DNA of 64,000 nt from a virus (IMGVR_UViG_3300042542_006078); one strand, 5' to 3'. Positions 8,014-46,831 are shown, counted from the first letter of the stretch. The notes: generated from the letters alone by a model not told the origin. Made by a program: numbers and translations.

Positions 8014-9234
8014 TTACATATTTCCGAGAAAAATTTCTTTTTCTTTTTGATTCATGGAGTTGGCTATTTCAGGGCCTTTCATGTGCATAAAATCTTTTGA
8101 ATTAGTTTGTTGTTTATAGTCAGCGAACTTATGAATGATGTTATTTTTTTGTAGTTTGGCAAATTCTAAGATATCATCTTTTGATCCTTGAAGAATTTCT
8201 TTTCTTTTGATTAGAGGAATGATTGGTGATGTTTCGAGGTTGTTGAGTTTGAGTAGTAGTTCAACTTTGTCTGAAACATCGTTTGTGTATTTGAGTGCTG
8301 ATAGTTTCTTTCTTACTTCTGTTGGTTCTGTGTTATCTCTCAAAATGAATGCTAGAGAAGCTGGGAAGCTTTTGACGCTTTCGATGTTTTGAGTATTTAC
8401 AATAAGTCCGGGTAGTACTGCTGGGAATAGTCCCAATTCTTGGTAATTTTTGAGGTAGCTTGATTTGTCTTTTGCTGATTTGAATCCGCTCATGAATTCT
8501 GCAACTATTCTTTCTCCTGATACACCTTCTAGTGTTTTGTATTTTTCTATTGCTCCGAGAGTATCGGAATCAAGTTGGTCTTTGATTCTGTTTGCATTAA
8601 ATCTACTGAAGAATCGGATCAATCTTAGTACTCTGAGTTTATCTTCTCTGAATCTGTCATATGGATTGCCTACTGGTCTTGCGACAAGGTTTTTGATGTC
8701 TTCAATTCCTTGGCCTTTTCCATTTGTTGTGTTGAAGTCAAGAATAGTTTTTTTATCGATGTCATAGAAAAGGGCATTCATGGTGAGGTCACGCCTGCTC
8801 GCATCTTTATCTGCTGTTGAGAAGCTTACTTTATCAGGTCTTCTTCCATCACCTGATATTGGATCATAATATTCTTCACGGAAAGTAGCTATTTCATATT
8901 CGTTGCCATTAAGGATTGCGGAAATGACACCGAATGCTTCTCCTTTTGGAAGTACTTTAATTCCGTGTCTAAGAGAATCTTGGCTTTTAAGAATTGCTGT
9001 TATTTGATCTGGTGTTGCATCTGTGGTGAGATCGACATCTTTTGGTCCAGAACCTTTTCCAGCCATGTGAAAATGGCTTATGAGGAAGTCACGAATTACT
9101 CCTCCTACTGCATAAAGTTTCTTGTTGTGTTTCTTGAATAGATCATTAAGAACCATGATATCATTAGGCATCGGTATTTCGATGTTGATATATTCTGCTT
9201 TTTCTTCGTTTTCAAGCCAAAGTTTGAATTTCAT
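8014..9234 (-). CDS. cca: Class II tRNA nucleotidyltransferase (CCA-adding enzyme / poly(A) polymerase family), motifs intact, tagged
   Basis: YAVGGVIRD, KDVDL (DxD), ATFREE..GRRPDKV loop, RRDLTMNAL, EDKLRVLRLIRF, SGERIVAEF. Start moved to ATG 9234 (MKFKLWLENE), which has ATAAATA 5 nt upstream. Confidence 0.9.
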   Translation of the reverse strand: MKFKLWLENEEKAEYINIEIPMPNDIMVLNDLFKKHNKKLYAVGGVIRDFLISHFHMAGKGSGPKDVDLTTDATPDQITAILKSQDSLRHGIKVLPKGEAFGVISAILNGNEYEIATFREEYYDPISGDGRRPDKVSFSTADKDASRRDLTMNALFYDIDKKTILDFNTTNGKGQGIEDIKNLVARPVGNPYDRFREDKLRVLRLIRFFSRFNANRIKDQLDSDTLGAIEKYKTLEGVSGERIVAEFMSGFKSAKDKSSYLKNYQELGLFPAVLPGLIVNTQNIESVKSFPASLAFILRDNTEPTEVRKKLSALKYTNDVSDKVELLLKLNNLETSPIIPLIKRKEILQGSKDDILEFAKLQKNNIIHKFADYKQQTNSKDFMHMKGPEIANSMNQKEKEIFLGNM

Positions 9235-9336
9235 GAGATTATTTATGGTATTAGAAAAATTTTTTGGTTTTGCTGAATTTTGGATTTTTCTTGACGAATA
9301 GGTATTGGTTTCTTTGATTTCATAGGAGTGCTTGAA

Positions 9337-9624
9337 ATGCAATACACGACTGTAATTCGTTGTTCTGGTTCTGATTTTGTTGGTAAAGACAAGAATGCTT
9401 TTAAGTCAGCTTTGGCTGCAAAGAAAGGTTTGAATTTGCCCAAAAAGGTTCATGTTTCGATTTCATTGGTTTTGGATGGTACTGAGATATTTCGTTCTCA
9501 TGGATTGGGTTTGAAGAGTGCTTTTTGGAGTTTTAAGGATAAATTGAGAAAGATGAAATTTGAAAGTAAAATTTTGATTGTCAAACCAATTACTTTGGTT
9601 TCGAGAGAGATAAATAAGGCATGA
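9337..9624 (+). CDS. Basic hypothetical protein
   Basis: AGGAG at 9324-9328 precedes ATG 9337; stop overlaps the next start (ATGA). Confidence 0.55.
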   Translation: MQYTTVIRCSGSDFVGKDKNAFKSALAAKKGLNLPKKVHVSISLVLDGTEIFRSHGLGLKSAFWSFKDKLRKMKFESKILIVKPITLVSREINKA

Positions 9625-10214
9625 TTTATTTTAAGTCTTGGTTAGAGAGTTCTGATTCTTTTCCAAGATATCTTTATCATGTAACTCCATCTTGTGATGA
9701 AGTTTTGAAAACTGGATTCAAGACTTCATCGCAATTGCCGCCCGGTTCGACTGTAATGGGTGGTAGTCATCAAAATTCTGTTAGTTTTACTTATGATTTG
9801 AAATGGGCCTATTATTATAAAGAGGCATTAGAAGAAGTCCGAGATATGTTAAATGATTCGGATTACATGTATAGCGATAAAATGTGGGACAGATTGCTTA
9901 AAAAGTTTCCTCTTTCTTCTAATGGCAGATATCTGATTGATTTAACAAAAAATATGATATATCCAAAAAAAGATGAACATGAAAAGATGCAGTTGTTTTT
10001 TCATATGCTTCCTCAAATATTTGATGGTCATTTCCCATTGATTTTTGGATCTGGATTAAAGAGAAGGCTTTCTGGAAATCCAAATATTTGCATATTAAAA
10101 GTTGACACTAGTGGATTATCATTGGATTTGGGGGAATCTAATCCAAAAGAAAAAGAAATTAGAGTTAAAAATCCAGAATTAATTAGTCTTGATAGAATCG
10201 ATGTTGTTTCGTGA
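9621..10214 (+). CDS. ADP-ribosyltransferase-fold protein (Tpt1/PARP-like His type), tagged
   Basis: Starts MIYFKSWLES. YLYHVT...VLKTGFK, SVSFTYD, ILKVD, EKEIRV. ATAAATA 4 nt upstream. Confidence 0.6.
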   Translation: MIYFKSWLESSDSFPRYLYHVTPSCDEVLKTGFKTSSQLPPGSTVMGGSHQNSVSFTYDLKWAYYYKEALEEVRDMLNDSDYMYSDKMWDRLLKKFPLSSNGRYLIDLTKNMIYPKKDEHEKMQLFFHMLPQIFDGHFPLIFGSGLKRRLSGNPNICILKVDTSGLSLDLGESNPKEKEIRVKNPELISLDRIDVVS

Positions 10215-10225
10215 ATCAATAATCT

Positions 10226-10711
10226 TCACTTTGCTTCTATCCAAACTGGAATTTCTGTTCTTCCTGCGTTTTTGTATGATTGCATTCTATGATGTCCGTC
10301 TCTAACCGAGTAATTATCGGGTGTTCCTTGTACTGTTATTGCTTCTGTATCTTTATTTGGATATCTTTTTAGATATGCTGTATATTTTGTAACTGTTCTA
10401 GGAGAATAAAGTTCTCTTTGTCCTATTGCGCTCCCTTTGAATCCTGATATTGGATATATTTTTTTGACAAACACTCCATCCATCGAGTTAAGATATTCAG
10501 TTCCATTGATTATAGCTCTGAATCCAACTCGTTGTTTTTTGAGGAATGGCATCAAATCCATTCTTCCAGCTTTGAATTCTTTTTCTGCTTCAATTGCAAT
10601 TTTATCGCTAAGGGGGATATATCCCAAATTAGGGTTTAACCTAGGTCTTTGGACAACCTTGTATTCAAGAGGGTTAGATTCACAGAAAATAAGAAAATCT
10701 TTGAAGTTCAT
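10226..10711 (-). CDS. ParB/Srx-like domain protein, tagged
   Basis: Starts MNFKDFLIFCE. AITVQG...YSVRDGHHRMQSYKNAGRTEIPVWI is a typical ParB-N motif. Confidence 0.75.
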   Translation of the reverse strand: MNFKDFLIFCESNPLEYKVVQRPRLNPNLGYIPLSDKIAIEAEKEFKAGRMDLMPFLKKQRVGFRAIINGTEYLNSMDGVFVKKIYPISGFKGSAIGQRELYSPRTVTKYTAYLKRYPNKDTEAITVQGTPDNYSVRDGHHRMQSYKNAGRTEIPVWIEAK

Positions 10712-10714
10712 GTT

Positions 10715-11842
10715 TTATTTATTCAATTTCAAGTCAATTTTTTCCCAAGAAAATTCATTTCTTCCGAAATGTCCTCCGCTTGCTGTAGCTGAATAAATTG
10801 GTTGTCGAAGTTGAAGTCTATCGATGATTGATTTGGGATTGAGTGGTACATTTTTAGTGATGAGTTGTGTGAGTTCTTCATCATTTCCTGTTCCGAATGT
10901 TTGCACACGGATTGAAACAGGTTCTATTACTCCTATTGCGTATGATACTTGAACTTGGCATTTTTTGGCGAATCCTTGTGATACCAAGTTTTTGGCTACA
11001 TGTCTTGCTGCGTATGCTGCACTTCTGTCTACTTTAGTTGGGTCTTTGCCGCTAAAGCTTCCTCCTCCTATTGGGCAATCTGCTCCGTAATTATCAACGA
11101 CGATTTTTCTGCCGCTTAGTCCTGTATCTGCTGCTGGCCCTCCAAGAGTCCAAAGTCCAGCAGGGTTGTATAACCATTTAGTTGTATTGTTCACTAATTG
11201 GCCAAAATCTTTAGTAATTGCCGGATAAACGATTTCATGGACATATTCATGAAGTTTTTCTATATTTTTGAAAACACCTTCACGATGTTGAGTTGAGACA
11301 AGTATTGTATCGATATATTTTGGATTTCCATCATTGTCATATGCTATGGTTACTTGGCTTTTTGCGTCTGGTAAAAGTGTATTAGAAATTGTTCTATTTT
11401 CTTTAAGTGCGTTAATTGCCACAAAGCTTAGATGATGGGCAAGAGGCATGAGTGGTTTTGTTTCATTGCAAGCAAATCCGAACATAAGTCCTTGGTCGCC
11501 CGCTCCGATATTTCCATCTTCTTTAGCTACTGCTTGAGCAATTTGCGATGATTGTCTATTGAGGTGATCAAGAATTTTAATTGTATTTCCGTCATAGCTT
11601 GTTTCTGGTGAGTTGTAGCCTATTTCGGTTATTTTTCTACGGACAAGTTTTTCAATGTCGAGTTTTTTTGATGATGATGTTTCACCTGTAACGAGTACGA
11701 GTTCTTTGCAACATGTTACTTCGACTGCGACACGGCTATTTGGTTCTAATTCCAAGTATGCATCAAGAATGGTATCTGCTATTTGGTCTGCGACCTTGTC
11801 TGGATGACCGTTTGAAACTGCTTCGCTTGTCCAAAGATACAT
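10715..11842 (-). CDS. metK: S-adenosylmethionine synthetase
   Basis: TSEAVSNGHPDKVADQI, GAGDQGLMFGFA, GGPAADTGLSGRKIVVDNYG, GGGSFSGKDPTKVDRSAAY. GAGGT RBS upstream. Confidence 0.97.
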   Translation of the reverse strand: MYLWTSEAVSNGHPDKVADQIADTILDAYLELEPNSRVAVEVTCCKELVLVTGETSSSKKLDIEKLVRRKITEIGYNSPETSYDGNTIKILDHLNRQSSQIAQAVAKEDGNIGAGDQGLMFGFACNETKPLMPLAHHLSFVAINALKENRTISNTLLPDAKSQVTIAYDNDGNPKYIDTILVSTQHREGVFKNIEKLHEYVHEIVYPAITKDFGQLVNNTTKWLYNPAGLWTLGGPAADTGLSGRKIVVDNYGADCPIGGGSFSGKDPTKVDRSAAYAARHVAKNLVSQGFAKKCQVQVSYAIGVIEPVSIRVQTFGTGNDEELTQLITKNVPLNPKSIIDRLQLRQPIYSATASGGHFGRNEFSWEKIDLKLNK

Positions 11843-11930
11843 ATGATTTACCTCATTTTGGTTTCAGATTAATGTAGTAATATTCCTATGATATATTTGG
11901 ATTTTATGTTAGTGAAGGAAAATAAAAATC

Positions 11931-12077
11931 ATGAAAAAAGATCAAGAGGTAAAGTCGCAATCTTTGGGTTTTTTGGCGACATTTATTTTGATTTCTGCTT
12001 GCAGGTCTGTGATTGGATATATAGCAGTTTGGCTTTTTAAGCCAATCTGGAATTGGTTTTGGAACAAGAAAAATTAA
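11931..12077 (+). CDS. Small (48 aa) membrane protein
   Basis: Hand-translated MKKDQEVKSQSLGFLATFILISACRSVIGYIAVWLFKPIWNWFWNKKN*. GAAGGA upstream. Confidence 0.5.
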   Translation: MKKDQEVKSQSLGFLATFILISACRSVIGYIAVWLFKPIWNWFWNKKN

Positions 12078-12084
12078 TTAATCC

Positions 12085-12612
12085 TCAGAATTTTCTTATT
12101 GATTTAAGATTTTTGAATTTTGAGTCAGGTATGATATCAGATGGTTTGTCCAATTTTTCTCCAACATGTTGCATGTGTTTTCTAACTCCACGCTCATTTT
12201 GGCCGACTCTCTTGTGAATTGGCGGGAAATTTGTTTCCATCCATTGGATGATTGCTTTTGGATCGCCTTCACTTCCGCATGTGAAAACATCAATATTGAG
12301 AAGTCCTTTTTCTGGCCATGTGTGGACTACGATGTGGCTTTGTCCTAGGACGATGAGATATGTGAATCCTGATTCTGGCTTGTTGTCATAAAGAGTCAGT
12401 CTTTTGTCGAAAACTTTCATGTTTCCATGTTCGGCTGCTTTGACTAGTGAATCAATAAGTGTTTCCTTATTGGCGACCTGTAGAAAATCGCTTTTTTCAG
12501 GATGATACCAAAAATCAACATTAAGGCTTAATCCAGAGCAATAATCACCTGTTGGAGTGTGAATTATTTCTGATTGTTCTTCTTCAATTAGCCATTTTTT
12601 GAAATCAATCAT
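12085..12612 (-). CDS. speD: Pyruvoyl-dependent S-adenosylmethionine decarboxylase family protein, tagged
   Basis: GFTYLIVLGQSHIVVHTWPEKGLLNIDVFTCG (consensus G-x-T-x-h-h-h-L-x-ESH-h-x-h-HTWPE...DhFTCG). Starts MIDFKKWLIEE. Confidence 0.88.
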   Translation of the reverse strand: MIDFKKWLIEEEQSEIIHTPTGDYCSGLSLNVDFWYHPEKSDFLQVANKETLIDSLVKAAEHGNMKVFDKRLTLYDNKPESGFTYLIVLGQSHIVVHTWPEKGLLNIDVFTCGSEGDPKAIIQWMETNFPPIHKRVGQNERGVRKHMQHVGEKLDKPSDIIPDSKFKNLKSIRKF

Positions 12613-12743
12613 AATTTACCTTAATTTGTGGAATAATATTTCCGATCATATTTAATCATTTGATAAATTACTTCTTTGGGAAAACTTTATCTAATTCTTG
12701 TCCGAATGATGATGGCGAAAGCATGTTTATATATTATGAGTCT

Positions 12744-14582: not shown

Positions 14583-14609
14583 GAATTATCTATGAATCAA
14601 AATAATTTT

Positions 14610-18262: not shown

Positions 18263-18865
18263 TTAAGCAAAACTATATGTCACTCTTATTGTTGCAGTCA
18301 TTTCTGGAACTCCAATGTTGGTGCAAATTTTGTGTTTTTTTGCTTCTTTTGATGTAAGAAACCAGTCTGCGTGTCCTTTTTCGTGAATGATTTTATCAAA
18401 ATAATCGGTTTGTTGGCCGCAGTTTTCAGCCAACAAACTGAATATTAGCTTGTTGAGTCTTTCTAGTTCTTTTGCATCACTCTTAACTTCTTCTATTTTT
18501 CCTCCTGTCCAAGTTGCCGCATCGTGAAGCATGAGTGTGGCGTGTTCTGCCATCCATCTGGTTTTTCCCATTCCGAAAAGTATTGCTCCAGCAGACATGG
18601 CTTTACCAGTAACAATTGTGTGGACTGGAAGAGATGCCTTTTTCAAATAGTTAATCATACTAAGGCAACCATAAACACTTCCTCCGTATGAGTCGATAAG
18701 AACAGGGATCAGTGGTTGACCAGTATGATGAGCCTTTTCCATATCTTCACGGAAAATTCTCACCCCATTGTCATCAAATGTAGTGACTACAACAATAACT
18801 GGCTGATCAATCAGTTCATTGTGTTTCGCTCGTATGACAGAATCAACCAATAACTTCTTGAACAT
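18263..18865 (-). CDS. clpP: ClpP-family serine protease
   Basis: IDSYGGSVYGCLSM, GKAMSAGAILF (Ser), LMLHD (His), DWFLTSKEAKK (Asp region). Confidence 0.9.
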   Translation of the reverse strand: MFKKLLVDSVIRAKHNELIDQPVIVVVTTFDDNGVRIFREDMEKAHHTGQPLIPVLIDSYGGSVYGCLSMINYLKKASLPVHTIVTGKAMSAGAILFGMGKTRWMAEHATLMLHDAATWTGGKIEEVKSDAKELERLNKLIFSLLAENCGQQTDYFDKIIHEKGHADWFLTSKEAKKHKICTNIGVPEMTATIRVTYSFA

Positions 18866-19183: not shown

Positions 19184-19570
19184 ATGGAAAAAAATCATAA
19201 GCATATGGTTTTGAATGCGACAGTAAGAAATCCCATTGTTTCAGCCGATATGTGTGTTAAATGGCTTACGCAGCTTGTTAATATTATAGACATGCAAATT
19301 TTGATTGATCCGGTTGCGAGATATTGTGACACAGAAGGTAATGAAGGTGTTACTGGAACAGTTGTAATTGAGACAAGTCACGCCAGTATTCATGTGTGGC
19401 ATAAAGAAGAAAACCCATATATCAGAATGGATGTTTATTCTTGCAAGGATTTTTCAGCAGAAAAAATCCTTAACTTTGTAAGGGAAACCATGGACTTGGT
19501 TCATGCGGGATACTTTTTGATAGACAGGAATGATTCATTGCCAAAAATGATTGAAAATGTAATTATTTAA
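19184..19570 (+). CDS. Second SpeD-family pyruvoyl decarboxylase
   Basis: NHKHMVLNA, GVTGTVVIETSHASIHVW, RMDVYSCKDF. GAGGT precedes ATG 19184. Confidence 0.85.
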   Translation: MEKNHKHMVLNATVRNPIVSADMCVKWLTQLVNIIDMQILIDPVARYCDTEGNEGVTGTVVIETSHASIHVWHKEENPYIRMDVYSCKDFSAEKILNFVRETMDLVHAGYFLIDRNDSLPKMIENVII

Positions 19571-20435
19571 TTTTTACTTTTCTTTTATTTAGAATATTTT
19601 TTGCCATCTTAGACATGAAATGTGAATTTGGTGTTGAGATGCAAGTTGATATTTTTTCTATTGGGTCTCCAAAAGAAATAAATTTTGGAGGCGGGAATGT
19701 GAACATGGAATTGCTGAAATCTGGAGGAAGTCCATGTTCATAGTCAATGAATACTGAGTCTGTACTATCATTCATGATGGCAGAAAGTCCAAAGTTTGGA
19801 ATAATTTCTATGTCTTTTGCCGATTCTATGATCGACATAACCCAAGCAAGTCTAATTGTTTCAGACCAAACAGTTTTATTGGCCATGATTTGATTGACGA
19901 TCAATGTTTCGGCAATTCGGATTATTTTCTGAACGAACCATTCTGGGAATCCAGCCAGAACATAGACTTTTCCAAGGTTAAACCAATTGTTTTCGTATAG
20001 TTCTTTTTCCTTGTCGAATTCTTTCCAGAATTCTCCACAATTTTCAACAGCTTTGTCAAATGTAAAAAATGGGTCTTGGACATATATGAAGGCTCTAGCA
20101 TCAAGTGTTTTAATTAGTTTTTCTATTGGCTTCTTCATAACCATATGTGGTTTTATGACGCACAATGGGGTTTTCATTTTATTTGTCATTAGCAAGTGAT
20201 TGATTTGATAAATTTCGTTAAGTGGTTCAAAACCTTTTTTCTTGCCGAAATCATCGTAAATGAAACCATTTTTCAATGAATTAACATGGTTGATATAAGG
20301 GTATCTGTGGCAGCTACCCTTGCTGATACCGACAAATAGTTTGTCGGTGGCAGAATTAATGTTGAAGCTTTCAATCAATAATTCTAGTTGCCAATCGTGA
20401 TATGCTTTTAGGTTGACGCTTACGAAGTAATTCAT
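19563..20435 (-). CDS. Hypothetical protein, possibly a degenerate glycosyltransferase
   Basis: Long ORF; start moved to MNYFVSV at 20435 to avoid overlap with the upstream gene. Confidence 0.5.
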   Translation of the reverse strand: MNYFVSVNLKAYHDWQLELLIESFNINSATDKLFVGISKGSCHRYPYINHVNSLKNGFIYDDFGKKKGFEPLNEIYQINHLLMTNKMKTPLCVIKPHMVMKKPIEKLIKTLDARAFIYVQDPFFTFDKAVENCGEFWKEFDKEKELYENNWFNLGKVYVLAGFPEWFVQKIIRIAETLIVNQIMANKTVWSETIRLAWVMSIIESAKDIEIIPNFGLSAIMNDSTDSVFIDYEHGLPPDFSNSMFTFPPPKFISFGDPIEKISTCISTPNSHFMSKMAKNILNKRKVKIK

Positions 20436-20451: not shown

Positions 20452-20796
20452 TTATTTTGAGTCTTTTCCAAATAAGAAATGATGTTCGTATGTCCTATAG
20501 ACCTCGCTATAAGCCACTCCCCATGATGCATCGTGCGATCTTAGTTCAAATTCTTTGTCGTCTAGCGAATCATGAAGGTGATTCCAAGCTCTGGCGTGAG
20601 CCCATTCATGAATGAGGCAGTCTATTGCTGAACCTTCGTCCATTTCTTTGTTGATTCTGATGTAGAACTTCTTTTCGTCCAACATGCAGTCTCCGTCAAT
20701 TCCTACCAGTTTGACACGCCTAACAATGACTGGATATGCTGGAGGTAGATTTTCCCTGAGAACTTTGATTATTTTTCTGTAAACTTCATATCCCAT
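20452..20796 (-). CDS. Small zincin-like metallopeptidase
   Basis: DCLIHEWAHARAW (HExxH), later HDASWG. Confidence 0.65.
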   Translation of the reverse strand: MGYEVYRKIIKVLRENLPPAYPVIVRRVKLVGIDGDCMLDEKKFYIRINKEMDEGSAIDCLIHEWAHARAWNHLHDSLDDKEFELRSHDASWGVAYSEVYRTYEHHFLFGKDSK

Positions 20797-20813: not shown

Positions 20814-21407
20814 TCAGAATTTTTCTTTAGAGCCTCTTTTCACATCATGTATAATTACTGTTTTAAGATTTGGATTTTCTTCCTTAAGTTTTAATCCAAG
20901 TTTTGAAAATTCATGTACATGTTCGGGCCTGTCTTCCCATATTTCTAATACTTCATAATCAGAATTCATTAAATTTTTTATATTGTTGGATTTTATTTCA
21001 AAGGTGTTTTCTCCCTTTGTGCCCGGTTGTCCTGCAAAAAATGTGTCGTGGAAATGCATTCCTGCATTTTCCAAAATTTCCATGACACGATTTTTAAGAT
21101 GAATTGCTCTGCCTGTCATGAGGATTACTGTGGCATTAGAATCTTGTGAATCACTCTTCTGTGATTCAACAACATTGCTCACATACCAGCTTGAATCTGG
21201 ATTTTGTGGAACTAATGGAGGAGATAGTGTTTCTTTTCTTCCCCACCAACCCTTGAATGGCCAATTTTTATTGGTGATGTCATAATACATTTGTTTGCCA
21301 TTGTGTTCTTCTGGTGAATGAAACAATGTTCCATCAAAATCGTAAATGACCAGTCTTTTTTCCGCTGTTGATTCTTTCATACACAGATATTCAAGAAAGT
21401 TTTTCAT
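20814..21407 (-). CDS. HAD phosphatase of the RNA-repair (Swiss-army-knife HAD) type, tagged
   Basis: IYDFDGTLFHSP (DxD), GWW, ILMTGR, IWEDRPEHV. Start 21407 (MKNFLEYLCMKE) overlaps the stop of the upstream gene (ATGA). Confidence 0.75.
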   Translation of the reverse strand: MKNFLEYLCMKESTAEKRLVIYDFDGTLFHSPEEHNGKQMYYDITNKNWPFKGWWGRKETLSPPLVPQNPDSSWYVSNVVESQKSDSQDSNATVILMTGRAIHLKNRVMEILENAGMHFHDTFFAGQPGTKGENTFEIKSNNIKNLMNSDYEVLEIWEDRPEHVHEFSKLGLKLKEENPNLKTVIIHDVKRGSKEKF

Positions 21408-22873
21408 AAAATTCTGTCGTTCATTTCTTTCCATCTTTTGGTCATCAGTATTTTTCTCATTTCATCAGGTTCAGATCCAACAGGTTCTCTTCCAAGAAAT
21501 TGTATGAAAATTGGATTGATCTTCTTGTTGCCAAATTCATCTGTGTTGTGCGAATTTAGATCATCTTTGTTAAAATGTAAAAACTGGTCAACCTCTTTTC
21601 CATGCATATTTGCCAAATGCATCCATTCTCGGATTTTGGCTTTTGTCAAACCAGTATGGGACTGAATCATATTGTAGAATTGATTTATGTCAAACTTTGA
21701 TTTGCCCCATTGATAGAATCTGACGAGGTATGCAATGTCGCTTGCTTCCTGCTTGCTCCACCCTCCTGCTATAAGCACATCTTTAACATCAGTTGGGTTG
21801 TTGTTTCTAAGAATCCAAGCAGCAGCCATCCATCTATCACATCTCATGTCGTTAGGAACATCTTCAATATCTATATGAATATTTGGGAATACGATGTTTA
21901 ACAAACCTGTTGAGTGATATGTTTTCAAGAATTTTTTGGCATTGACATCTGGATTTTCCAGACCATTAACGAATTCATCCTTGATTTTATCAGGAGAAAT
22001 ATCTTCGTAATCATCTTCAGATCCTATGTGCTTTAAGTATTCCTCAGGTACATTTTGACCTTTGCCGAAACGGTTGAAGTGATTGACAAGACGGAATGCT
22101 GTCATTGGGTCTTCCTGCATTCTGTCCTCGAATTTGCCGCCAACTGCTTTCATTTCTCCAGATTTCAGGTGATGCGCTCCACCGAAAGGATCGATTAATT
22201 CGCTGTTTGGTCCATCATCGTTGGTTAAAGGAATGTACATTGCATTGATGGTGAAATCTCTGTTGATTGCATCTTCTTCTACACTGGATGCCAATTTAAT
22301 GTCGGATGGATCAAAATATCTGCTCTTTGGTGACTTTGTCATAGATGAAAGTCTAAAAGGTTGTCCTTTTACAACTGCGACAATTTCAAGTTCTTTGCTT
22401 TTTTTATCGGTTCTGCTCACATAGAAAATCTTTTTACCTGATACATCATTGGGTAAATCATCATATTTATTATTATCTATTTGGCCTTTTACTTCCTTGA
22501 ATCCTGAATATTTGAGTATCATCCTGATCTCACTAGCTGTTGCATCAGTTACGAGATCGTAGTTTTTGGGAGTCTTGCCAAGAAGATGGTCCCTAACTGC
22601 TCCTCCTGTCAAAAATATTGATTTTTTCTTGAGTTGCGGCTCTATTTCGCCCTTGTTTCTGTCTATTGTGGTGTATCCTAATCCAACTTTGTCAGAATCT
22701 AGAAATGCTCCTATTAAAGGAGCTAAGTTTGCATGATTGTCCTTGTCAATAATAAATGGAGTAAATTCATTACTTCCCTGTTTTTTTTGCAGCTTTATCT
22801 TAGCTGTAACTCCAACTGGGGCTTCTTCGCTTTCTTCACGAAGTTTGATATATTTTGAGAATAAGCTTTTCAT
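21404..22873 (-). CDS. CCA-adding enzyme paralogue with degenerate catalytic motifs
   Basis: FLTGGAVRDHLLG, KNYDL (DxD changed to NxD; codons aac tac gat checked), INRDFTINA (RRD to NRD), EDPMTAFR (EDxxR to EDxxT). Starts MKSLFSKYIKLREE. Confidence 0.85.
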   Translation of the reverse strand: MKSLFSKYIKLREESEEAPVGVTAKIKLQKKQGSNEFTPFIIDKDNHANLAPLIGAFLDSDKVGLGYTTIDRNKGEIEPQLKKKSIFLTGGAVRDHLLGKTPKNYDLVTDATASEIRMILKYSGFKEVKGQIDNNKYDDLPNDVSGKKIFYVSRTDKKSKELEIVAVVKGQPFRLSSMTKSPKSRYFDPSDIKLASSVEEDAINRDFTINAMYIPLTNDDGPNSELIDPFGGAHHLKSGEMKAVGGKFEDRMQEDPMTAFRLVNHFNRFGKGQNVPEEYLKHIGSEDDYEDISPDKIKDEFVNGLENPDVNAKKFLKTYHSTGLLNIVFPNIHIDIEDVPNDMRCDRWMAAAWILRNNNPTDVKDVLIAGGWSKQEASDIAYLVRFYQWGKSKFDINQFYNMIQSHTGLTKAKIREWMHLANMHGKEVDQFLHFNKDDLNSHNTDEFGNKKINPIFIQFLGREPVGSEPDEMRKILMTKRWKEMNDRIL

Positions 22874-29500: not shown

Positions 29501-32500
29501 TGAAGACGGCAGCTTCTGCCGCCGTTCTTACTGCTGGCGCTGTTCTTCTTGGTGCTGCTATCATGTTCTTGGGCGATAAGCTTTTGAAATTATTGAATAT
29601 TGATGTCAACAGGATGATGGAAATAGGTACTGCATTAACCGCTCTTGTTGGGGTGACAGCAGCAGTTACGGCAGCAAGTGTATTTGTAAGTGAAAAAATA
29701 CTAGAATTTGCTCCAAAAGTAGAAGAAATTAGAAAACAATCTGGAACATTAATTAAAACAGCATTGGCATTGGTTCTTATTGGTTCTGCTCTAGTTTTGT
29801 TTGGAGCAGCACTGGTTGGAATTACCGGCAAAATTCTTAGTATGTCTGGTCTTGATGCTGCTTCAACGATTGAAATTGCAGCAAATATTGGCGCATTGGC
29901 TGCTGTTGCTAGTGGTGTGGCAGTAGCAACTGTTGAGTTCGCTGAAGTATTGCAGGAATTCACAGAAAGCGCAATGTACCAGCAACTAAGTAAAAATCCT
30001 AAAGAATATGTCATGAAAATTCTTAAGGCAGCAGCAGTAATAGGTGCATTCAGCGTTGGTATTGTGACATTTGGAGCATTATTAGTAAAGGCTATTCAGG
30101 GAATTCTTTATGTTACAGGAATTGATGCTTCTGTAGTCACTGGAGTTGTAGATACACTTTGGGCTCTTGGCTGGGGAGTAGGAAAGATAGTATTGGCCAC
30201 AGCAGCAGCGGTTGGCGTTATTATGGGCCTAGGATGGGCTTTTAGTTTGATAAATAATCCTGCTGGATGGACTTTACTTGGAGTCGGGGCCGCTGCTATC
30301 GCTGTAGCAGTACCATTAATTGCTGCTTTTTCAATAGGTGTCATATACGCTGCTGCCGCATTTTCAAATCTGATGGACACAAAGACTGCTAATGATGTAG
30401 CTGATGGAATAGCAGCAATTGCTGGATCAACAACAAGAATTGTTGGAGCATTGGCAGGCGCAGCCGCATCACTGGTAGGTTTGGCTGGAGTTGGCGTAAC
30501 AGCCTTTTTCTTATCATTCATAATAGGATACGCAACAGATGCAGTTAATGCAATAGTTCCAGTATTGGTAGATTTTTCTAATGCAGCAGTTAAAGCAGCA
30601 AAGTCAATTGTCGGAGTAATTCCTCCAAGACTTGTAGATGAAGCCACTTCTGGAATGCAAACAGTATTAGATGGTGTTAGAAAAATAGGTTCTGCAATAG
30701 TGGGAATGATTCCATACTTGTCTGGAATGAGTGCTTTGGGAACAATAAGTGGCATTCTAGCTAATATTTTATATTTGGCAGGATGGGCAATCTTAGATTT
30801 AACTCCTCCTATTGTGTTTTTTGGGACGGCAGTAATAATTGCGGCAAAAGCAATAGTTTCAATCATTAATCCAAAATATGTTCAAAGTGCTGTAGAAGGA
30901 GTCGAAGCGGTTCTAAATGCCGTTAAGACTATTGGAACAGCAATGAAAAACATGTCAGATTTTTTATATGGATTTTCTAGTAATTATGATTTCACTGGTT
31001 GGGTGCCAATGTGGTTGTATATGGCATCAGATGCAATAATAACCATTAAGAATCCAATTCTTTATTATGCACTTGTTATAAAAAATTTCGCAAAAGCACT
31101 TGGTGCTGTTTTTAGTCCACGACTTGCAAAAGGTGCTTCTGAAGGAGTTACGGCAGTAGTTGATGCAATAACCGATATAACAAATTCCATAATGAAATTA
31201 AAGGAAACAATTGACAAATATTCAACAACTGCGTTATATGCAGGTGTGCTTGTCTGGTGGATGAATGGTGCAATTAGATTCTTTCAAATAATTCAAGAAC
31301 CAATTATAAATTTTGGAATAGCAATAAGTGATTTTGCATTGGCTCTCAATACTGCTTTTAGCGCAAGACTTGCAAAGAGTGCTTCTGAAGGTGTGAATGC
31401 TATTATCGGAGCTATAACTGAAATTACAACTTCTGTTATGGAATTTAAGAAAACAATTGACAAATATTCTGTTTGGGCACCCGACTGGGTTGCTTGGTGG
31501 CTAAGGGGCGCTGTTACTTACATGCAAACAATAAGAGAGCCAATTGTAAATTTTGTAATAGAAGTAATGGGTCTTGCACAAGAATTAGGTAATAATGTAA
31601 AAATTGGTCCGGCCAAATTACTTGCAAAGACATTAACTGTTTTGTCAACAATTATTGAAAAAACAACGACAGTAATAAGCGATCTTTCCAACAAGTTAGT
31701 TCCATTAGTGAGAGGAGGTTGGTTTAAGAAATCTCCAGCAGAACTTATAAAAGAATCAGAAAACAAATTGAAGAGTTTCTTCAAAACAGTATCTGGACTT
31801 GTTGTTTCAATAATCGATGAAGTCCAAACAAACTTCAAAGATATTGGAAAATTGAAATCTACTGCTAAAATTCTTATGGTTGTTGGAATGATAATAACCG
31901 AGATGGCAAAAGCAGTTGAATTATTCTCGACAAAAATAATGCCTTTTACAAAGAAAGATTTTGCAACAGGTAAGTCTCCAATAGAAAAAATAAATGAATC
32001 TCAGGGTCAACTTGGTAAATTCTTTGAAAATATAAGTAATCTTATTTCTGAAGGAATAGTTGCTCCAGTATCAATGATTGGAAATGTTGAAACATTGAAG
32101 CCAGTTGCTAAGACATTGGCTGTTATTTCAGTTTTGTTGAATGAAGCAGCCAAGACAATCAAGGCTTTAGCTGATGTTGTTGGATTAATGGACCCAGTAA
32201 GCTTCTTCCAAGAATCGCCAATAAGTAAAATTTCTAAGTATAAAAATCAATTTGCAGAATATTTCCTTGAAATAGCTGATTTGGTTACTTGGGGAATTGT
32301 TTGGCCAATTCTCTTTGCTATGCCAAATACAGAAGACTTAAGAAAAGCTCAGACAATTTTAATTGGAGTTGCAACAATTGCTTGCGCTACAGGAAAAACA
32401 ATCAAATCTCTTGCTGAAGTAATGGCTCTGATGGACCCTGTTAGTTTGTTTTTTGATTCTCCCATGGAAAAAATTGTCAATAACAAAAAACAATTTACAG

Positions 32501-34635
32501 ATTGGTTTGATTCAATTGCCGTATTTGTTCGTGATGGGATTGTTGATCCTGTTGTGGCCATATTTACCGATACGACTCAATTGAATAAGGCGGCAGTTAT
32601 AATCAAGGCCATGAGTCTAATTGCGATAAGACTTGTTCCTCTCATTAAAAATCTTGCAGAAGCAATTTCATTGGCAACAGATGCTCCCACATTCTTCGGA
32701 GTTGCTCCGATGCAAAAAATTGTAGACAATAAAGAAAAATTTAAGGGTTGGTTCATATCAATTGCCGAATTCATGAAAACTGGAATTATAATACCTGTTT
32801 TCACGAATCTTGGTGATGTAGACATGGGCAAGGCTCAAAAAATAATCATGGCTATGGCCACAATTGCAAGAAATATATCTCCACTCATCAAGAACATGGC
32901 ATCGGCAGTTGGCATGGTGAGCGAAGGAGGAGAAGAAAGCATAGACACCGATTTTCCAATGGACAAAATAATTGCCAGCAAGGATAAATTTGCTAAATTT
33001 TTCAATACTACTGCAATATTTTTGAGAGACGGCGTGGTAATGCCTATTTTGCAACAAATGGGCGATCTTAAACAGATTCAACAGGCATCAAGAACTTTGT
33101 TGGCTATGAATTCTTTGTTGACAAATATTCCACTAGTAATCAAAAACTTTGCAAATAATGTTCTTCCATTGGTTGTAAGTGCAGACACAGATTTAAGGGA
33201 TACTCCTGCTGAGAAAATAGATGCAGGAAAAGAAAAATTTGCAATATTCTTCAGGAATGTTACAGCTTTCTTGCGTGACGGAATTGTAAATCCAGTAATA
33301 CAAGAAATGCCAGACTCTAAGACCATTCAAACAGCGGGAAGAATCATGCTTGGAATGAACATGCTGTTAAACAATGTTTCTGGAGTAATCAAAAATTTGG
33401 TTAAATTGTTTGGTGGATCACTTGATCCAAACCAATGTTTGAAAGAAGCTCCTATACCTATGATTGCTAGAATGGCACCAATTTATCAGGAATTCTTTGG
33501 GGCTGTAATTGGATTTTTGGTTGATGGAATTGCGAATCCCATATTGCACGGATTCCCTTCAGAAGATGATATGAAGGAGGCAAATGGCAGAATGAAAAAC
33601 ATGCTTTTGCTTATCACTCAAATTCCTCCATTTATTCAACAATTGAATAAAACAATTAATGATCTTGGAACCAATATTGTTGGTTTTGGAACAATGTTTA
33701 GCGTGGCGGTATTTACAGGAACTTTTGGTTATATTTCCAATCTTTTAATTGAAGGTGTTATCAATCCAATCAGAATGATGCCAGACTCAGAAGAGCTTGA
33801 TGAAATGTTAAATAAATTAAATTTGATGTCAGAAGTTGTTTATACTGCTGGAGTTGTTATGAGCAGAATGAATCAGACATTCAACAACTTCGCATCAGCA
33901 ACAAATATTTTCTCATCACTTACTGGCAGATGGGATCAACACTTCTTCCAGAAATCATTCACGGGAATGGCGATAAGCTTAAAGAGTGGAATCATAGAGC
34001 CGATCACAAATCTTTTCCCGAAAGCATCTGAGCTTCAGATCGTTGTTGATAAGCTTGCTTTGCTTGGACAAGTATTAAATAAGCTTGAAGAGGTCATGAA
34101 CTCACTTGGAGCAACATTCTCATCAATTGGCAAGATGGGAGTCGATATGAGCCAAATTAATACAATGCCAATGGATAAGTTGTTGGCTTTGGCAAATATA
34201 GCACAAAGTGGGGCGCAAGCGGCAATCACACCTGTTGGAGCAGCAGTTGCAAATTCTCCAGCAGGAGCGGCAGTATCTACAGCAGCATCCGGCTCAACAA
34301 ATGCCGCAATTGAGAATAAAGTCGCTGCCAAGAAAGCTGGAGAAGAGCCAGCGACAAATAAAGTTACATCGAAAGAATTGCAAGATATATCTAAAAATTC
34401 TTCTGATCAAAACGCAAAACTTGACACGCTTATTACATTATTCCAGAAGGTCGTCGATGCACTTAAACCTTCTCCCGCATCGGGAGGAGGTGGTGGAAGT
34501 GTAGCTGGTGAAACTCCTGATACTTCGTTGAATAGACCACCTGCCAAGAGTCCCATGTTTCCTAGGGCTGTGACCGGAAGGGTTGGACAGGGACCAGCAA
34601 AGCAAGTGAATACCTTGCTACCAATAAGACTGTAA
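26509..34635 (+). CDS. Tail tape measure protein
   Basis: 2708 aa, Ala-rich and helical, with a central hydrophobic region and long C-terminal imperfect repeats (DGIVxPI); directly upstream of baseplate genes. Confidence 0.85.
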   Translation: MDQTAIDNLGRTITPLIGSIDALRSALGSLKTGDPQAVGGDPKAISDLTGLMSEFIKDFKKSADEEKSLLNEVVNAMKSGKASRSKTKASSGGTGPDSKSAKNSEEIADNQERANNAQTSGYKTGQLMRNLSNELKINYKEHNSLLEKAIQNVVEQNNHQAKITDSQFNGYQITKELNEEQKKLVKAEFDSLLYQRKSTDAAYKFRQQLSDVRSTFDSINSSLGIQTNLTEGLVKEEAQFTRDVRAAAYETAGVTKNSKSLQRVYEDIGTSVRATGVDRTKFQQSYMKALKGGVKDLKQAVSLTTTQLNTEQQLGMEAGSLQDTFQGMAQSGRMTNSQISEVGRGMRDVARNTGLTGEALRGAVDSSREIINQLRNAANLTATATKNVIEMNANAKKLGVESQMQSLQSGLTSGAKLLTESSTETRNAILMAAGKTGKLREAMNGTLLDTKDGIKSLGKGFQGILKDFGVGSLEEIDQLSAEAKTRLNIQLKSVVGMELGEFRSLIESVNEAGKGLGDRLTDINKKMQGNITADEKKNLMEEQRRLKASKQLEMLTALDEAAKGAKDMNGALAKFGEKKKDFEGDLQALGTSWTDSTQVARESIRGALENVNQGLKEAGKSQLKIDSTEIEKALKDPTALRELTAKITKGEQELATAQKAQLDPVTQSNQYLSEINDNMRNLSQNIMSKGMNSIVGQGAVAASVMGSLATQFGQFASSSSETFGDLKGALFGKARVGDKEAEKSIFGNIKTLIFGAGKESGQQPEEAAKTAGQAATTEAAKTAGQAATTEATTTQKPLDAFLAAGLSSKGEVPTSASQKAESAAGKEASDKSGGISGGKYMKVFQDMITSIELMGVCCERTHESIKTAIAALEHIAKCCDLTNNSIQKAIESVKSPSPTATASAAEAKPNAAEDAINKKIQDQQMENAITDANVNKIKIREQKKEVRMLRVDQRLQREEVKESKTKEAESSAGGAATGPPDASVLDPKAMEQGGKSMMKTAASAAVLTAGAVLLGAAIMFLGDKLLKLLNIDVNRMMEIGTALTALVGVTAAVTAASVFVSEKILEFAPKVEEIRKQSGTLIKTALALVLIGSALVLFGAALVGITGKILSMSGLDAASTIEIAANIGALAAVASGVAVATVEFAEVLQEFTESAMYQQLSKNPKEYVMKILKAAAVIGAFSVGIVTFGALLVKAIQGILYVTGIDASVVTGVVDTLWALGWGVGKIVLATAAAVGVIMGLGWAFSLINNPAGWTLLGVGAAAIAVAVPLIAAFSIGVIYAAAAFSNLMDTKTANDVADGIAAIAGSTTRIVGALAGAAASLVGLAGVGVTAFFLSFIIGYATDAVNAIVPVLVDFSNAAVKAAKSIVGVIPPRLVDEATSGMQTVLDGVRKIGSAIVGMIPYLSGMSALGTISGILANILYLAGWAILDLTPPIVFFGTAVIIAAKAIVSIINPKYVQSAVEGVEAVLNAVKTIGTAMKNMSDFLYGFSSNYDFTGWVPMWLYMASDAIITIKNPILYYALVIKNFAKALGAVFSPRLAKGASEGVTAVVDAITDITNSIMKLKETIDKYSTTALYAGVLVWWMNGAIRFFQIIQEPIINFGIAISDFALALNTAFSARLAKSASEGVNAIIGAITEITTSVMEFKKTIDKYSVWAPDWVAWWLRGAVTYMQTIREPIVNFVIEVMGLAQELGNNVKIGPAKLLAKTLTVLSTIIEKTTTVISDLSNKLVPLVRGGWFKKSPAELIKESENKLKSFFKTVSGLVVSIIDEVQTNFKDIGKLKSTAKILMVVGMIITEMAKAVELFSTKIMPFTKKDFATGKSPIEKINESQGQLGKFFENISNLISEGIVAPVSMIGNVETLKPVAKTLAVISVLLNEAAKTIKALADVVGLMDPVSFFQESPISKISKYKNQFAEYFLEIADLVTWGIVWPILFAMPNTEDLRKAQTILIGVATIACATGKTIKSLAEVMALMDPVSLFFDSPMEKIVNNKKQFTDWFDSIAVFVRDGIVDPVVAIFTDTTQLNKAAVIIKAMSLIAIRLVPLIKNLAEAISLATDAPTFFGVAPMQKIVDNKEKFKGWFISIAEFMKTGIIIPVFTNLGDVDMGKAQKIIMAMATIARNISPLIKNMASAVGMVSEGGEESIDTDFPMDKIIASKDKFAKFFNTTAIFLRDGVVMPILQQMGDLKQIQQASRTLLAMNSLLTNIPLVIKNFANNVLPLVVSADTDLRDTPAEKIDAGKEKFAIFFRNVTAFLRDGIVNPVIQEMPDSKTIQTAGRIMLGMNMLLNNVSGVIKNLVKLFGGSLDPNQCLKEAPIPMIARMAPIYQEFFGAVIGFLVDGIANPILHGFPSEDDMKEANGRMKNMLLLITQIPPFIQQLNKTINDLGTNIVGFGTMFSVAVFTGTFGYISNLLIEGVINPIRMMPDSEELDEMLNKLNLMSEVVYTAGVVMSRMNQTFNNFASATNIFSSLTGRWDQHFFQKSFTGMAISLKSGIIEPITNLFPKASELQIVVDKLALLGQVLNKLEEVMNSLGATFSSIGKMGVDMSQINTMPMDKLLALANIAQSGAQAAITPVGAAVANSPAGAAVSTAASGSTNAAIENKVAAKKAGEEPATNKVTSKELQDISKNSSDQNAKLDTLITLFQKVVDALKPSPASGGGGGSVAGETPDTSLNRPPAKSPMFPRAVTGRVGQGPAKQVNTLLPIRL

Positions 34636-39742: not shown

Positions 39743-39750
39743 GAGAAAAA

Positions 39751-41310: not shown

Positions 41311-41313
41311 GGA

Positions 41314-44769: not shown

Positions 44770-45248
44770 AAGATCTAATTAACAGTATCAAGACCCGTGG
44801 CGATGTGCAGATGATAATAGATTATGCTTGTGGAAAGCGTGAGATTATTGAGTTTCCAAACACGGTATTAAATAATGGTCGTGAAGCTCTAGCTGCTTCT
44901 CTCGGAAACAAATTTACTGGAAATTATAGTTTCTACATTAACAGGATGATTTTTGGAACTGGTGGAACTACTGGCGGAAATGTAAAATTCGTTGATGCTG
45001 GTAGAAATGGTTTGTTTTGTGGTTCTCCAGTTTCATCAAAGCCCGTCATATCCGCAATTGATCCTAATGTTAATTCGCAGATAATTTTGACCTCTGTTTT
45101 GGCAACTGGTGATGCAGTTGGCGAAACTCTCAACGAGATGGCATTACAAATGGCCACTGGTGATTTGTACAGTATGGTTACATTTCCTGATTTGACTAAA
45201 ACAGATCAGATGAGTATCATTTGGAATTGGACTCTAAGCTTTATCTAA
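44766..45248 (+). CDS. Baseplate/tail-fibre attachment domain protein
   Basis: NTVLNNGREALA...LNEMAL...YSMVTFPDLTKT...WTLSF resembles tail-collar/fibre N-terminal domains. Confidence 0.6.
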   Translation: MKDLINSIKTRGDVQMIIDYACGKREIIEFPNTVLNNGREALAASLGNKFTGNYSFYINRMIFGTGGTTGGNVKFVDAGRNGLFCGSPVSSKPVISAIDPNVNSQIILTSVLATGDAVGETLNEMALQMATGDLYSMVTFPDLTKTDQMSIIWNWTLSFI

Positions 45249-45263
45249 TATTGAAGGGGGAAA

Positions 45264-46100
45264 ATGCCTGACTTAAATGGTTTACCAGTTCCACAATACA
45301 ATGCTGGCCAGCCTTATCACTGGGAATATGACAATCTGCCTTTGCAAACATTGGCTGATAGGGATGATCTGATCAATGCTGTTGTAGACACTCATCAAGA
45401 GATTTTAAGAAATAGTGCTGGCACTGTAGGAACATTGGCTAATCGTCTTGATCAATCGATTCAAGATGATGGTAATTTGCTTACTAGTGCTGTTAATGAT
45501 GCCTTGCACAATATTGCAAAACATACAGATGGTAGTACTACCGTTTCTGGTTCTGATCTTACAGATTACCAAAATCTTGGTTATGTGACAGTAAGCAATC
45601 CTGTTCCTTTTGTGAGGATGCTAGAGGCGGAGAGAGATAAGCTTTCTCTTGTTGCAGATGAAGCCACTAAGTTGTTGGTTGATGTCAACACGCCATCTCT
45701 TGTTTATACATTCGGTGATGGTGGTATTGACAATCTTGTCTTGGCTGAGTCAACTAGTATTGGATGGACATTTGAAGGCCCGAATAGCGTAAAGCCGGAA
45801 ATTAAATTTTCTATTGCTTTTGCCCATCGTCATTATTATGATTTAGAACCAATAACTAGCAATTACATCAATTTTCAGGTCAATAGCCCATCTACTCCAT
45901 ACATGGAAGACAGTTTGCGAGTTTATATCAATGGTGTGAGACTTAATTCAGAGTATAATGTATATGTTCCAAACAACACCGTAAGCACATGGACTTCCAA
46001 TAGGTTCACTCCAAGTCATCTTGCTGGGACATTTGCGCTTGCGACTGCAATCAATGCTTCTGATATAATCAGAATTGATTTTGATGTAGCTGTAACATAG
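45264..46100 (+). CDS. Tail-associated structural protein
   Basis: N-terminal coiled segment; C-terminal SLRVYINGVRL beta domain; in the tail operon. Confidence 0.55.
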   Translation: MPDLNGLPVPQYNAGQPYHWEYDNLPLQTLADRDDLINAVVDTHQEILRNSAGTVGTLANRLDQSIQDDGNLLTSAVNDALHNIAKHTDGSTTVSGSDLTDYQNLGYVTVSNPVPFVRMLEAERDKLSLVADEATKLLVDVNTPSLVYTFGDGGIDNLVLAESTSIGWTFEGPNSVKPEIKFSIAFAHRHYYDLEPITSNYINFQVNSPSTPYMEDSLRVYINGVRLNSEYNVYVPNNTVSTWTSNRFTPSHLAGTFALATAINASDIIRIDFDVAVT

Positions 46101-46108
46101 GAGCTTGC

Positions 46109-46831
46109 ATGTCATTTATAAACTGGGTGAAGAATAGAGATAATGATCTTTATTGTGAGTTCATCTTGCAGGATGAGTATGGCAATGAAAATACAGACAG
46201 CAAAAAAGAACTTGTTGTTCTGGTCGGACCTCCAGCAGTTGGCAAAAGCACATATATAGCTCAAAAATTTCATTCAGATGATGTTTTTGTTGTAAGTCGT
46301 GATGAAATAGTTGATCGTGTATCAAAAGATTACGACATGACATATGATGATATGTTTGCATTACCTCCAAAAGATGCTTTGCCAAATACTAGCGTGGCTG
46401 GAATGGAAAAGTATGGGAATGTGCAAAAAGCTCCTTTGTGGATGAAATGGACTCCCGTGGTTTTCGATAGAGTTCAAGAAGCGAATGATAGAATAAATAA
46501 TTTATTGCAAAAAAGATTTGCTGATGCAGTAAATTCTGACCTGAATATTGTTGTTGATATGACAAACATGACAGCTTCTGTTCGCAAGAACGCTTTGAAA
46601 CATGCAGACAAAAAAGATTATTTCAAAAGAGCGGTGGTTTTTACATTTCAGGATTCTGATCTTCCTGAATTGATGAGAAGAATGAAAGAAAGAAGCGATA
46701 AGATTAGAAAGCAGGGAGGAAGCAAAACAATTGGCGAAGATGTCGTCAATAGAATGATTCAAAGTTTTGAAGCTATAGATCCGAAAGAAGGATTTGACCG
46801 AGTTGACACAATCAATACTTTTTCTGTTTGA
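46109..46831 (+). CDS. P-loop kinase, polynucleotide-kinase-like (AAA_33 type)
   Basis: VVLVGPPAVGKSTY, VVSRD, VVDMTNMTASVR, lid RMKER. Starts MSFINWVKNRD. Confidence 0.8.
   Translation: MSFINWVKNRDNDLYCEFILQDEYGNENTDSKKELVVLVGPPAVGKSTYIAQKFHSDDVFVVSRDEIVDRVSKDYDMTYDDMFALPPKDALPNTSVAGMEKYGNVQKAPLWMKWTPVVFDRVQEANDRINNLLQKRFADAVNSDLNIVVDMTNMTASVRKNALKHADKKDYFKRAVVFTFQDSDLPELMRRMKERSDKIRKQGGSKTIGEDVVNRMIQSFEAIDPKEGFDRVDTINTFSV

Follow-up and report, generated by a model that had tools for sequence, protein, structure and literature searches.

Bacteriophage T4 counters the host anticodon nuclease PrrC by repairing the severed tRNA with polynucleotide kinase (Pnk), an enzyme that combines a 5' kinase with a HAD-type 3' phosphatase, together with the RNA ligase Rnl1. 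In bacterial CCA-adding enzymes such as that of E. coli, the C-terminal HD domain acts as a 2',3'-cyclic phosphodiesterase and phosphatase. To our knowledge, the phage answers to tRNA attack (spare tRNAs, and Pnk with Rnl1 in T4) all require prior phage gene expression. Jumbo phages possess an RNA-repair complement of RNA ligases, polynucleotide kinases, PNK-HAD proteins or stand-alone 'Swiss-army-knife' (SAK) HAD phosphatases, and CCA-adding enzymes (Iyer et al. 2021, PMC7824862); the stand-alone RNA-repair phosphatase of these phages, HAD_SAK_1, is distinct from the HAD domain fused to Pnk (PMC7824862). Here we analyze a 64,000-nucleotide stretch of viral DNA (IMGVR_UViG_3300042542_006078; hereafter, the window), in which an earlier note had pointed to a dispersed set of tRNA end-repair enzymes at positions 8014–46831: a CCA enzyme, a HAD phosphatase and a Pnk-like kinase, each beginning with a short N-terminal tag.

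All three enzymes lie where they had been placed. However, the set was incomplete, as a fourth part, a second nucleotidyltransferase coupled to the HAD gene (NTase2, 21404–22873), had been left out. The set would therefore comprise four RNA-end enzymes, namely a predicted active CCA-adding enzyme, a SAK-type HAD phosphatase, an altered paralog of the CCA enzyme and a kinase of the Pnk clade, each apparently tagged with a leader that resembles the capsid-targeting sequence of T4. The enzyme set itself is known jumbo-phage biology. The novelty lies in two findings: many uncultured phages carry a leader of the capsid-targeting type on these enzymes, and the altered CCA paralog is conserved as a neighbor of the HAD phosphatase. 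The jumbo-phage survey deals with these enzyme families in genomes of this type, and huge phages related to ours also have RNA ligases, but it reports neither N-terminal targeting leaders nor a conserved pairing of SAK HAD with an altered CCA paralog (PMC7824862). In the literature that we searched, neither packaging of CCA enzymes or polynucleotide kinases, nor such a leader on them, nor the pairing had been reported.

The window corresponds, in reverse complement, to bases 32,200–96,199 of a 136,667-bp linear viral contig, whose completeness is estimated by CheckV at ~31%. Since the same CCA protein is carried by a 434,573-bp contig, we consider the phage to be a huge one, of ~435 kb. There seems to be no close relative among deposited phage genomes, as a near-identity search of these with 15 kb of the contig gave no near-identical match. 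Judging by the encoded proteins, the head is of the T4 type: the contig codes for a T4-like portal (phrog_213), a T4-like major head protein (phrog_138, 6e-85) and a head-maturation protease of the T4 gp21 family (Peptidase_S77, 2.7e-26; phrog_207, 1e-48). The window also has a baseplate wedge protein and further structural genes.

About 20 unrelated open reading frames (ORFs) of the contig begin with M-x-x-F-K-Q-F-L-E-N or a close variant. Most of them form a single cluster that occupies window positions 1–12,612 (- strand) and continues past the window to genome position 98278. More generally, the leader consists of aromatic-x-x-aromatic-aliphatic, usually followed by Glu, and the aromatic-x-x-aromatic-aliphatic pattern occurs within the first nine residues of 23 out of 194 ORFs, compared with 1.6 expected. 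The Leu of the leader is encoded by four different codons, suggesting that selection acts on the peptide. Comparison of homologs also indicates that the leader is a modular add-on, separate from the enzyme folds, because close homologs carry it while distant HAD proteins and the CCA enzymes of Aeromonas phages do not. The tagged ORFs share an upstream signal as well: of the 23 tagged ORFs, 14, including the CCA gene, have TAAATA no more than 16 nt from the ATG, versus 4 of the 171 others (Fisher p 2.7e-12). The box, mostly in the form C/ATAAATA, is separated by 3–5 nt from the start ATG of tagged genes, and no Shine-Dalgarno sequence accompanies it. Should the box be a -10 element of the T4 late type, the mRNAs would be almost leaderless.

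The T4 capsid-targeting tag is MKTYQEFIAE (PMC8442874). Its targeting is governed by residues 4 and 7, and gp21 cleavage, which takes place after L/I-x-Glu, by residues 8 and 10 (PMC9026906). Leaders of our phage read MKTFKQFLES or MITFKQFLEN, and those of the MKTFKQFLES type match the T4 tag at positions 1–4, 7 and 8. The targeting residues (aromatic at 4 and 7, aliphatic at 8) are present outright in the HAD phosphatase (F4, Y7, L8) and with a one-residue shift in the CCA enzyme; the kinase (F3, W6, V7) and NTase2 (F5, Y8, I9) have shifted variants. As in the T4 internal proteins IPI-III, from which the tag is removed by gp21, unrelated proteins carry the leader at their very N-terminus, with aromatics three apart, an aliphatic residue and Glu, and the genome also encodes a T4-like capsid protein and a protease of the gp21 family (Peptidase_S77). 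The tagged genes are also clustered, hypervariable and mostly of unknown function, much like the internal-protein loci of T-even phages. In contrast to T4, where a handful of genes are tagged, here there are ~20 in 136 kb. Their products include sizeable RNA-metabolism enzymes, the Glu is at position 9 instead of 10, and some leaders are shifted by one residue. Candidate cleavage sites are aromatic-Leu-Glu followed by Asn, Ser or Gly in the core leaders, M-K-E-S in the HAD phosphatase (L-K-E-S in homologs) and L-R-E-E in NTase2; the kinase leader is without Glu. LLE-N/G motifs resembling the FLE-N of the leader are found in the N-terminal (propeptide) region of the capsid protein and in a 674-aa head protein. 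By analogy with T4, the leader probably loads proteins into the prohead.

The CCA-adding-type enzyme (8014–9234, - strand; 406 aa) is an intact class II tRNA nucleotidyltransferase, in agreement with its earlier description. It matches Pfam PolyA_pol (PF01743; 5e-24, 85.4 bits, gathering cut-off 23) and phrog_2244 (tRNA nucleotidyltransferase; 9e-43), and its best solved relatives are human TRNT1, the mitochondrial CCA enzyme (9e-26), and bacterial CCA enzymes, with poly(A) polymerase behind (4e-16). In the alignment with TRNT1, motifs GGxVRD..DxD, RRD and EDxxR are all intact (GGVIRD, DVD, RRDLTMN and EDKLRVLR, respectively), and the protein is predicted to be an active CCA-adding enzyme. A match to the RNA-binding domain stays under the Pfam cut-off (18.4 versus 22 bits), and the Pfam search found no HD domain. 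This sets the phage protein apart from the bacterial CCA-HD and HD-Pnk end-healing enzymes, which are otherwise comparable in that a phosphoesterase clears the tRNA 3' end for CCA rebuilding and which have phage counterparts in nucleotidyltransferase-HD-kinase and HD-kinase fusions; here, the phosphoesterase would be the separate HAD protein.

The likely start of the CCA gene is the ATG at 9234 rather than the TTG at 9342, because an ATAAATA box is present at 9240–9246, the leader begins at that Met, and homologs start there. The box (- strand, 5 nt upstream of the start codon) is of putative function, is common to tagged genes and resembles the -10 element of T4 late promoters (TATAAATA). The leader, MKFKLWLENEE, opens an N-terminal extension of ~25 residues before the catalytic head domain. 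On a strict leader matrix that we built from 13 core leaders it scores 18 bits (background maximum 10), which is on par with the core tagged cluster. Of the 120 best CCA homologs, at least 86 have a leader of the same type before a conserved ADIPLP motif, whereas CCA enzymes of classical T4-like Aeromonas phages are without it.

The phosphatase (20814–21407, - strand; 197 aa) carries the leader MKNFLEYLCMKES, followed by the DFDGT nucleophile motif. Its assignment as an RNA-repair-type HAD phosphatase holds up, with a match to Pfam HAD_SAK_1 (PF10307) at 3e-15 and 56.8 bits (cut-off 25.6) and a weaker one to HAD_PNKP. HAD motifs I–IV are all present and invariant in 28 family members (D23, D25 and T27 of DFDGT, T98, K139, D159). 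We placed the start at 21407 on the basis of the ATGA overlap with the upstream stop codon and of many homologs that are also 197 aa long. In the AlphaFold model (pLDDT 93) the leader forms a separate N-terminal helix. Sequence searches of solved structures, with both the single sequence and a profile, yielded nothing significant, and therefore we turned to a fold search. The top Foldseek matches were Pnkp1 of the Pnkp1/Rnl/Hen1 RNA-repair complex (3e-4) and the T4 Pnkp phosphatase (1.4e-3), although TM-scores are modest (~0.5) and the protein phosphatase Ceg4 is also among the top matches. The enzyme is expected to remove 3' phosphates, and its family context suggests RNA 3' or 2',3'-cyclic phosphates as the substrate (PMC7824862). 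In the ~22 closest homologs DFDGT is preceded by canonical leaders (MKTFKQFLEKKE, MITFEKFV, MKSFIEYL), while distant homologs either start at the HAD core or have a leader of another type. One such clade (P0032–P0057, P0072, P0080–P0090) displays a different conserved leader, MSKQQTLEKWLPKPRNRKRR, with a TL-x-KWLP motif and a basic run in place of the aromatic leader; it may represent an alternative targeting signal.

Directly upstream of the HAD gene lies NTase2 (21404–22873, - strand; 489 aa, leader MKSLFSKYIKLREESEE), a class II nucleotidyltransferase (PolyA_pol, 5e-20) whose TGA stop overlaps the HAD ATG as ATGA at 21404–21407. Compared with solved CCA enzymes, its active site is altered at three places: DxD has become NxD (NYD, with Asn for the first metal-binding Asp), RRD has become NRD, and EDxxR has become EDxxT (EDPMT, with Thr for the templating Arg). 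Thus, NTase2 departs from the catalytic and templating motif set of CCA enzymes. All three changes are kept in relatives with 54–70% identity, and the gene order (nucleotidyltransferase, HAD, SprT-like protein, ~290-aa gene, ClpP-like protease) is kept in huge-phage contigs of 76–673 kb. NTase2 would therefore be a stable, selected variant rather than a decaying copy. Judged by gene order, this active-site-altered CCA paralog is the partner of the HAD phosphatase; plausibly, it is translationally coupled to the phosphatase and serves as its tRNA-end-binding partner. Complex prediction for the two proteins returned a score of 0.00, which has no bearing either way. The NTase2 leader, LFxKY(F/I)xLREE, is conserved out to the 673-kb genome and takes the canonical form in LR756511.1 (MRTTFLEFMGLKE).

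Within the same block, the ClpP-like protease (window 18263–18865, - strand) matches several head-maturation-protease PHROGs and, together with the gp21-type protease near the capsid gene, brings the candidate maturation proteases to two. The ~290-aa HAD neighbor (window 19563–20435, - strand) was considered as a hidden ligase and rejected, since an atlas look-up pointed to a glycosyltransferase-like family (atlas score 0.97; HPAT and GT8 as minor shares). The SprT-like protein beside the HAD gene (window 20452–20796, - strand) is a small HExxH protein.

The kinase (46109–46831, + strand; 240 aa) has a leader of ~33 residues (MSFINWVKNRDND...) before the P-loop strand. That this is a P-loop, Pnk-like kinase was borne out by matches to AAA_33 (6e-17) and to phrog_505, the polynucleotide kinase PHROG that includes T4 Pnk (8e-12). 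When a profile of the family (23 homologs) was compared with PDB sequences, the first 12 distinct matches were all Pnkp, PNKP or T4 Pnk (5e-7 to 7e-5); the kinase of C. thermocellum Pnkp (5e-7), Pnkp1, mammalian PNKP and T4 Pnk (1.4e-5) preceded any other kinase. The P-loop GPPAVGKST, SRD with the catalytic Asp after strand 2 (D65) and the VVDxTN-type motif IVVDMTNM are invariant in the 23 homologs and align with GSSGSGKST, SSD and VVDATN of CthPnkp. Accordingly annotated as a member of the polynucleotide kinase clade, the enzyme is predicted to phosphorylate 5'-OH ends of RNA. Its gene is situated within a baseplate/tail operon, with the gene for a baseplate wedge protein as its neighbor, and is preceded by a Shine-Dalgarno sequence of its own (TAGGAG). 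In other phages the homologous kinase is fused to a CCA-type nucleotidyltransferase (621 aa, L022:4571-6433) or combined with a nucleotidyltransferase and an HD domain within a single 1,627-aa protein (L040:4591-9471); in yet another contig a nucleotidyltransferase lies within ~2 kb of it. Further phage homologs are HD-kinase fusions, and none is fused to HAD. The fusions lend indirect support to RNA 5'-OH ends as the kinase substrate. Nearly all kinase homologs have leaders of 15–35 residues, and several are found in arrays of tagged genes, such as the L041 locus with 11 consecutive tagged genes, the kinase included.

How do these enzymes relate to T4 Pnk? The phage encodes both a P-loop kinase of the Pnk clade and a DxDxT HAD protein whose model ranks next to Pnkp phosphatase domains, and the two proteins together span both halves of the T4-Pnk PHROG profile (positions 54–143 for the kinase, 195–287 for HAD). 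The differences are that the activities reside on separate, unlinked genes, that the phosphatase is of the SAK family, and that no ligase is seen in the ~31% of the genome available; moreover, T4 Pnk is without a capsid-targeting leader and acts after expression. The idea put forward earlier, that Pnk had been split into separate genes, is therefore valid as a description of function, given the complementary halves, but not of history: the HAD protein belongs to a stand-alone SAK family, and the kinase is fused elsewhere to a CCA-type nucleotidyltransferase or HD domain, not to HAD. Literal fission of a T4-type Pnk was rejected on family membership, as HAD_SAK_1 is distinct from the Pnk-fused HAD. 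The functional links between the kinase, the CCA family and the HAD phosphatase, which would join the four enzymes, come from fusions and synteny in other genomes.

The reading that we favor is as follows. The enzymes would be made late, and their leaders would dock them on the scaffolding core of the prohead. The gp21-family protease would then cut the leader off after Glu. Ejected together with the DNA, the enzymes would heal broken or blocked tRNA ends (removal of 3' phosphates, rebuilding of CCA and 5' phosphorylation) before any phage gene is expressed. In this scheme we infer encapsidation, leader cleavage, late timing, tRNA as the substrate and the counter-defense role. Overall, we hold the view of four packaged tRNA-end-healing enzymes tentatively, at somewhat less than an even chance. 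A more specific version seems improbable, though worth stating: the catalytically dead CCA paralog would be an acceptor-end adaptor that presents the end to the SAK HAD phosphatase, the latter would strip 3' phosphates left by nucleases or 3' pyrophosphates of the toxSAS/CapRel type, the CCA enzyme would rebuild the end and the kinase would restore 5' phosphates. In this way a pre-loaded, injected tRNA 3'-end rescue would disarm tRNA-targeting abortive infection ahead of expression.

A number of observations weigh against packaged tRNA healing. The earlier note had seen no RNA ligase in the window, and the search extended to all 136,667 bp of the contig likewise gave no match to PF09414, PF09511 or RtcB. 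In favor of tRNA repair, RNA ligases are present in 7 of 9 related genomes checked; all five related huge phages with the HAD protein have two to five RNA_ligase-family genes, one of them RtcB in addition, and two of four kinase-bearing viral contigs have Rnl1-type ligases. One complete kinase-bearing genome, on the other hand, has none of the three ligase families, and the ligases of the relative LR745206.1 show no leader. Because of the latter, a complete packaged heal-and-seal pathway is not supported by these comparisons, and end-healing with CCA rebuilding alone fits the data equally well. A single tRNA is encoded in the 136 kb, tRNA-Lys(UUU) (genome 116771–116844, outside the window). 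Transfer RNA-Lys is the species attacked by PrrC and PARIS. The CCA end is not encoded in this gene, which leaves the CCA enzyme a routine task independent of packaging. The three genes noted earlier are dispersed (at 8, 21 and 46 kb), and the kinase is not tied to the others in this genome. In the phage database, homologs of the kinase and HAD proteins come only from uncultured huge phages of 485–642 kb. The Glu of the leader stands directly after the aliphatic residue, so that the presumed cleavage site differs from L/I-x-E of T4. Finally, on the strict matrix the kinase leader is marginal (4 bits, p ~0.02, without Glu), and the HAD and NTase2 leaders fail. As the leaders used for training were near-identical paralogs, however, the matrix is too narrow, and for HAD and NTase2 we rely on comparison with homologs. 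The earlier statement that all three enzymes start with the tag or its variant can thus be upheld: the CCA leader qualifies by itself, and those of HAD and the kinase, weak alone, were accepted because their homologs carry canonical leaders.

The most serious competing explanation, less probable in our opinion than the packaged set but deserving attention, is that these are ordinary intracellular enzymes of translation support or RNA repair that work only after synthesis in the host, with a leader that has some non-capsid role, be it in the translation of mRNAs with very short leaders, as a tag for degradation or regulation, or in localization within the infected cell. Jumbo phages commonly have CCA enzymes, polynucleotide kinases and stand-alone SAK HADs (PMC7824862), and the phage tRNA-Lys needs its CCA added. 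With the TAAATA box just 3–5 nt from the ATG, leader codons could matter for initiation, and the ClpP-like protease in the conserved NTase2-HAD block would suit a degradation or regulatory tag. However, the leader is kept as amino acids, through synonymous codons and in distant phages of different nucleotide sequence, and it agrees with the T4 tag at positions 4, 7 and 8, which experiments have shown to matter. It also co-occurs with a gp21-family protease, and the same hydrophobic-Leu-Glu motif is present in the capsid propeptide region. Nor does the enzyme need the leader, as T4-like Aeromonas CCA enzymes manage without it.

It might also be argued that the proteins are packaged but do not cooperate on tRNA. 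The CCA enzyme would then mature or maintain tRNAs, the substrates of the kinase and phosphatase would be DNA ends, other RNA ends or nucleotides, and NTase2 would have a new activity unrelated to tRNA. We find this unlikely. The genes are indeed differently regulated as well as dispersed (the CCA gene in the tagged cluster, HAD in the conserved core block, the kinase in the baseplate operon), four kinase-bearing genomes lack HAD_SAK_1, and the HAD block also holds the SprT-like protease and the glycosyltransferase-like gene; in addition, T4 Pnk and mammalian PNKP, both matched by the kinase profile, act on DNA too. Set against this are the fusion or proximity of kinase homologs to CCA-type nucleotidyltransferases and HD phosphoesterases in other phages, the coupling of HAD to a CCA-family protein across deep divergence, and a HAD fold that ranks closest to RNA-repair Pnkp phosphatases. 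We give even less credence to the proposal that the CCA enzyme alone is truly tagged and that the N-termini of HAD, NTase2 and the kinase are tag-like by chance, helped by the choice of start codons. The strict-matrix results point in that direction, and the HAD leader does depend on choosing an internal ATG. That start, however, is fixed at 21407 by the ATGA overlap and the 197-aa homologs; close HAD homologs have textbook leaders at the same place, whereas distant ones start directly at the HAD core; and kinase homologs with leaders occur in tagged arrays. The conservation of the NTase2 leader as far as the 673-kb genome, with MRTTFLEFMGLKE in LR756511.1, is also hard to reconcile with chance.

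If packaged tRNA healing is true, its interest lies in timing. Transfer RNA is now seen as a frequent target of bacterial immunity: AriB of PARIS cleaves tRNA-Lys (PMC11464382), toxSAS enzymes pyrophosphorylate the tRNA CCA end (10.1101/2021.04.30.441581), and MenT toxins extend tRNA acceptor stems (PMC10435456). Repair enzymes that travel in the capsid would arrive as a ready-made counter-measure, which would be a new tactic. A rule combining the leader with a gp21-type protease would, if correct, let virion cargo be predicted from metagenomes, and since the leader is present on most of the 120 best CCA homologs, many lineages are open to a test of packaging. In addition, the altered CCA paralog stays paired with the phosphatase from contig to contig, which suggests an undescribed enzyme–adaptor arrangement at the tRNA 3' end.

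Several other features of the contig were recorded. Among the proteins of the tagged cluster, Pfam recognized AdoMet decarboxylase alone and nothing else that is RNA-related. This leader-tagged S-adenosylmethionine (SAM) decarboxylase (AdoMet_dc, 2e-19; window 12085–12612, - strand) is encoded beside an untagged SAM synthetase (window 10715–11842, - strand), and one relative has two AdoMet_dc copies. In the structural region, a single ORF of 2,708 aa (window 26509–34635, + strand) has counterparts of 2,352–4,553 aa at the same place in relatives. Beside the capsid gene, a 509-aa ORF (genome 3323–4852, outside the window) shows HNH/homing-endonuclease, Mom-like, head-closure and endonuclease VII matches, perhaps because a mobile endonuclease entered the head module by fusion or insertion.

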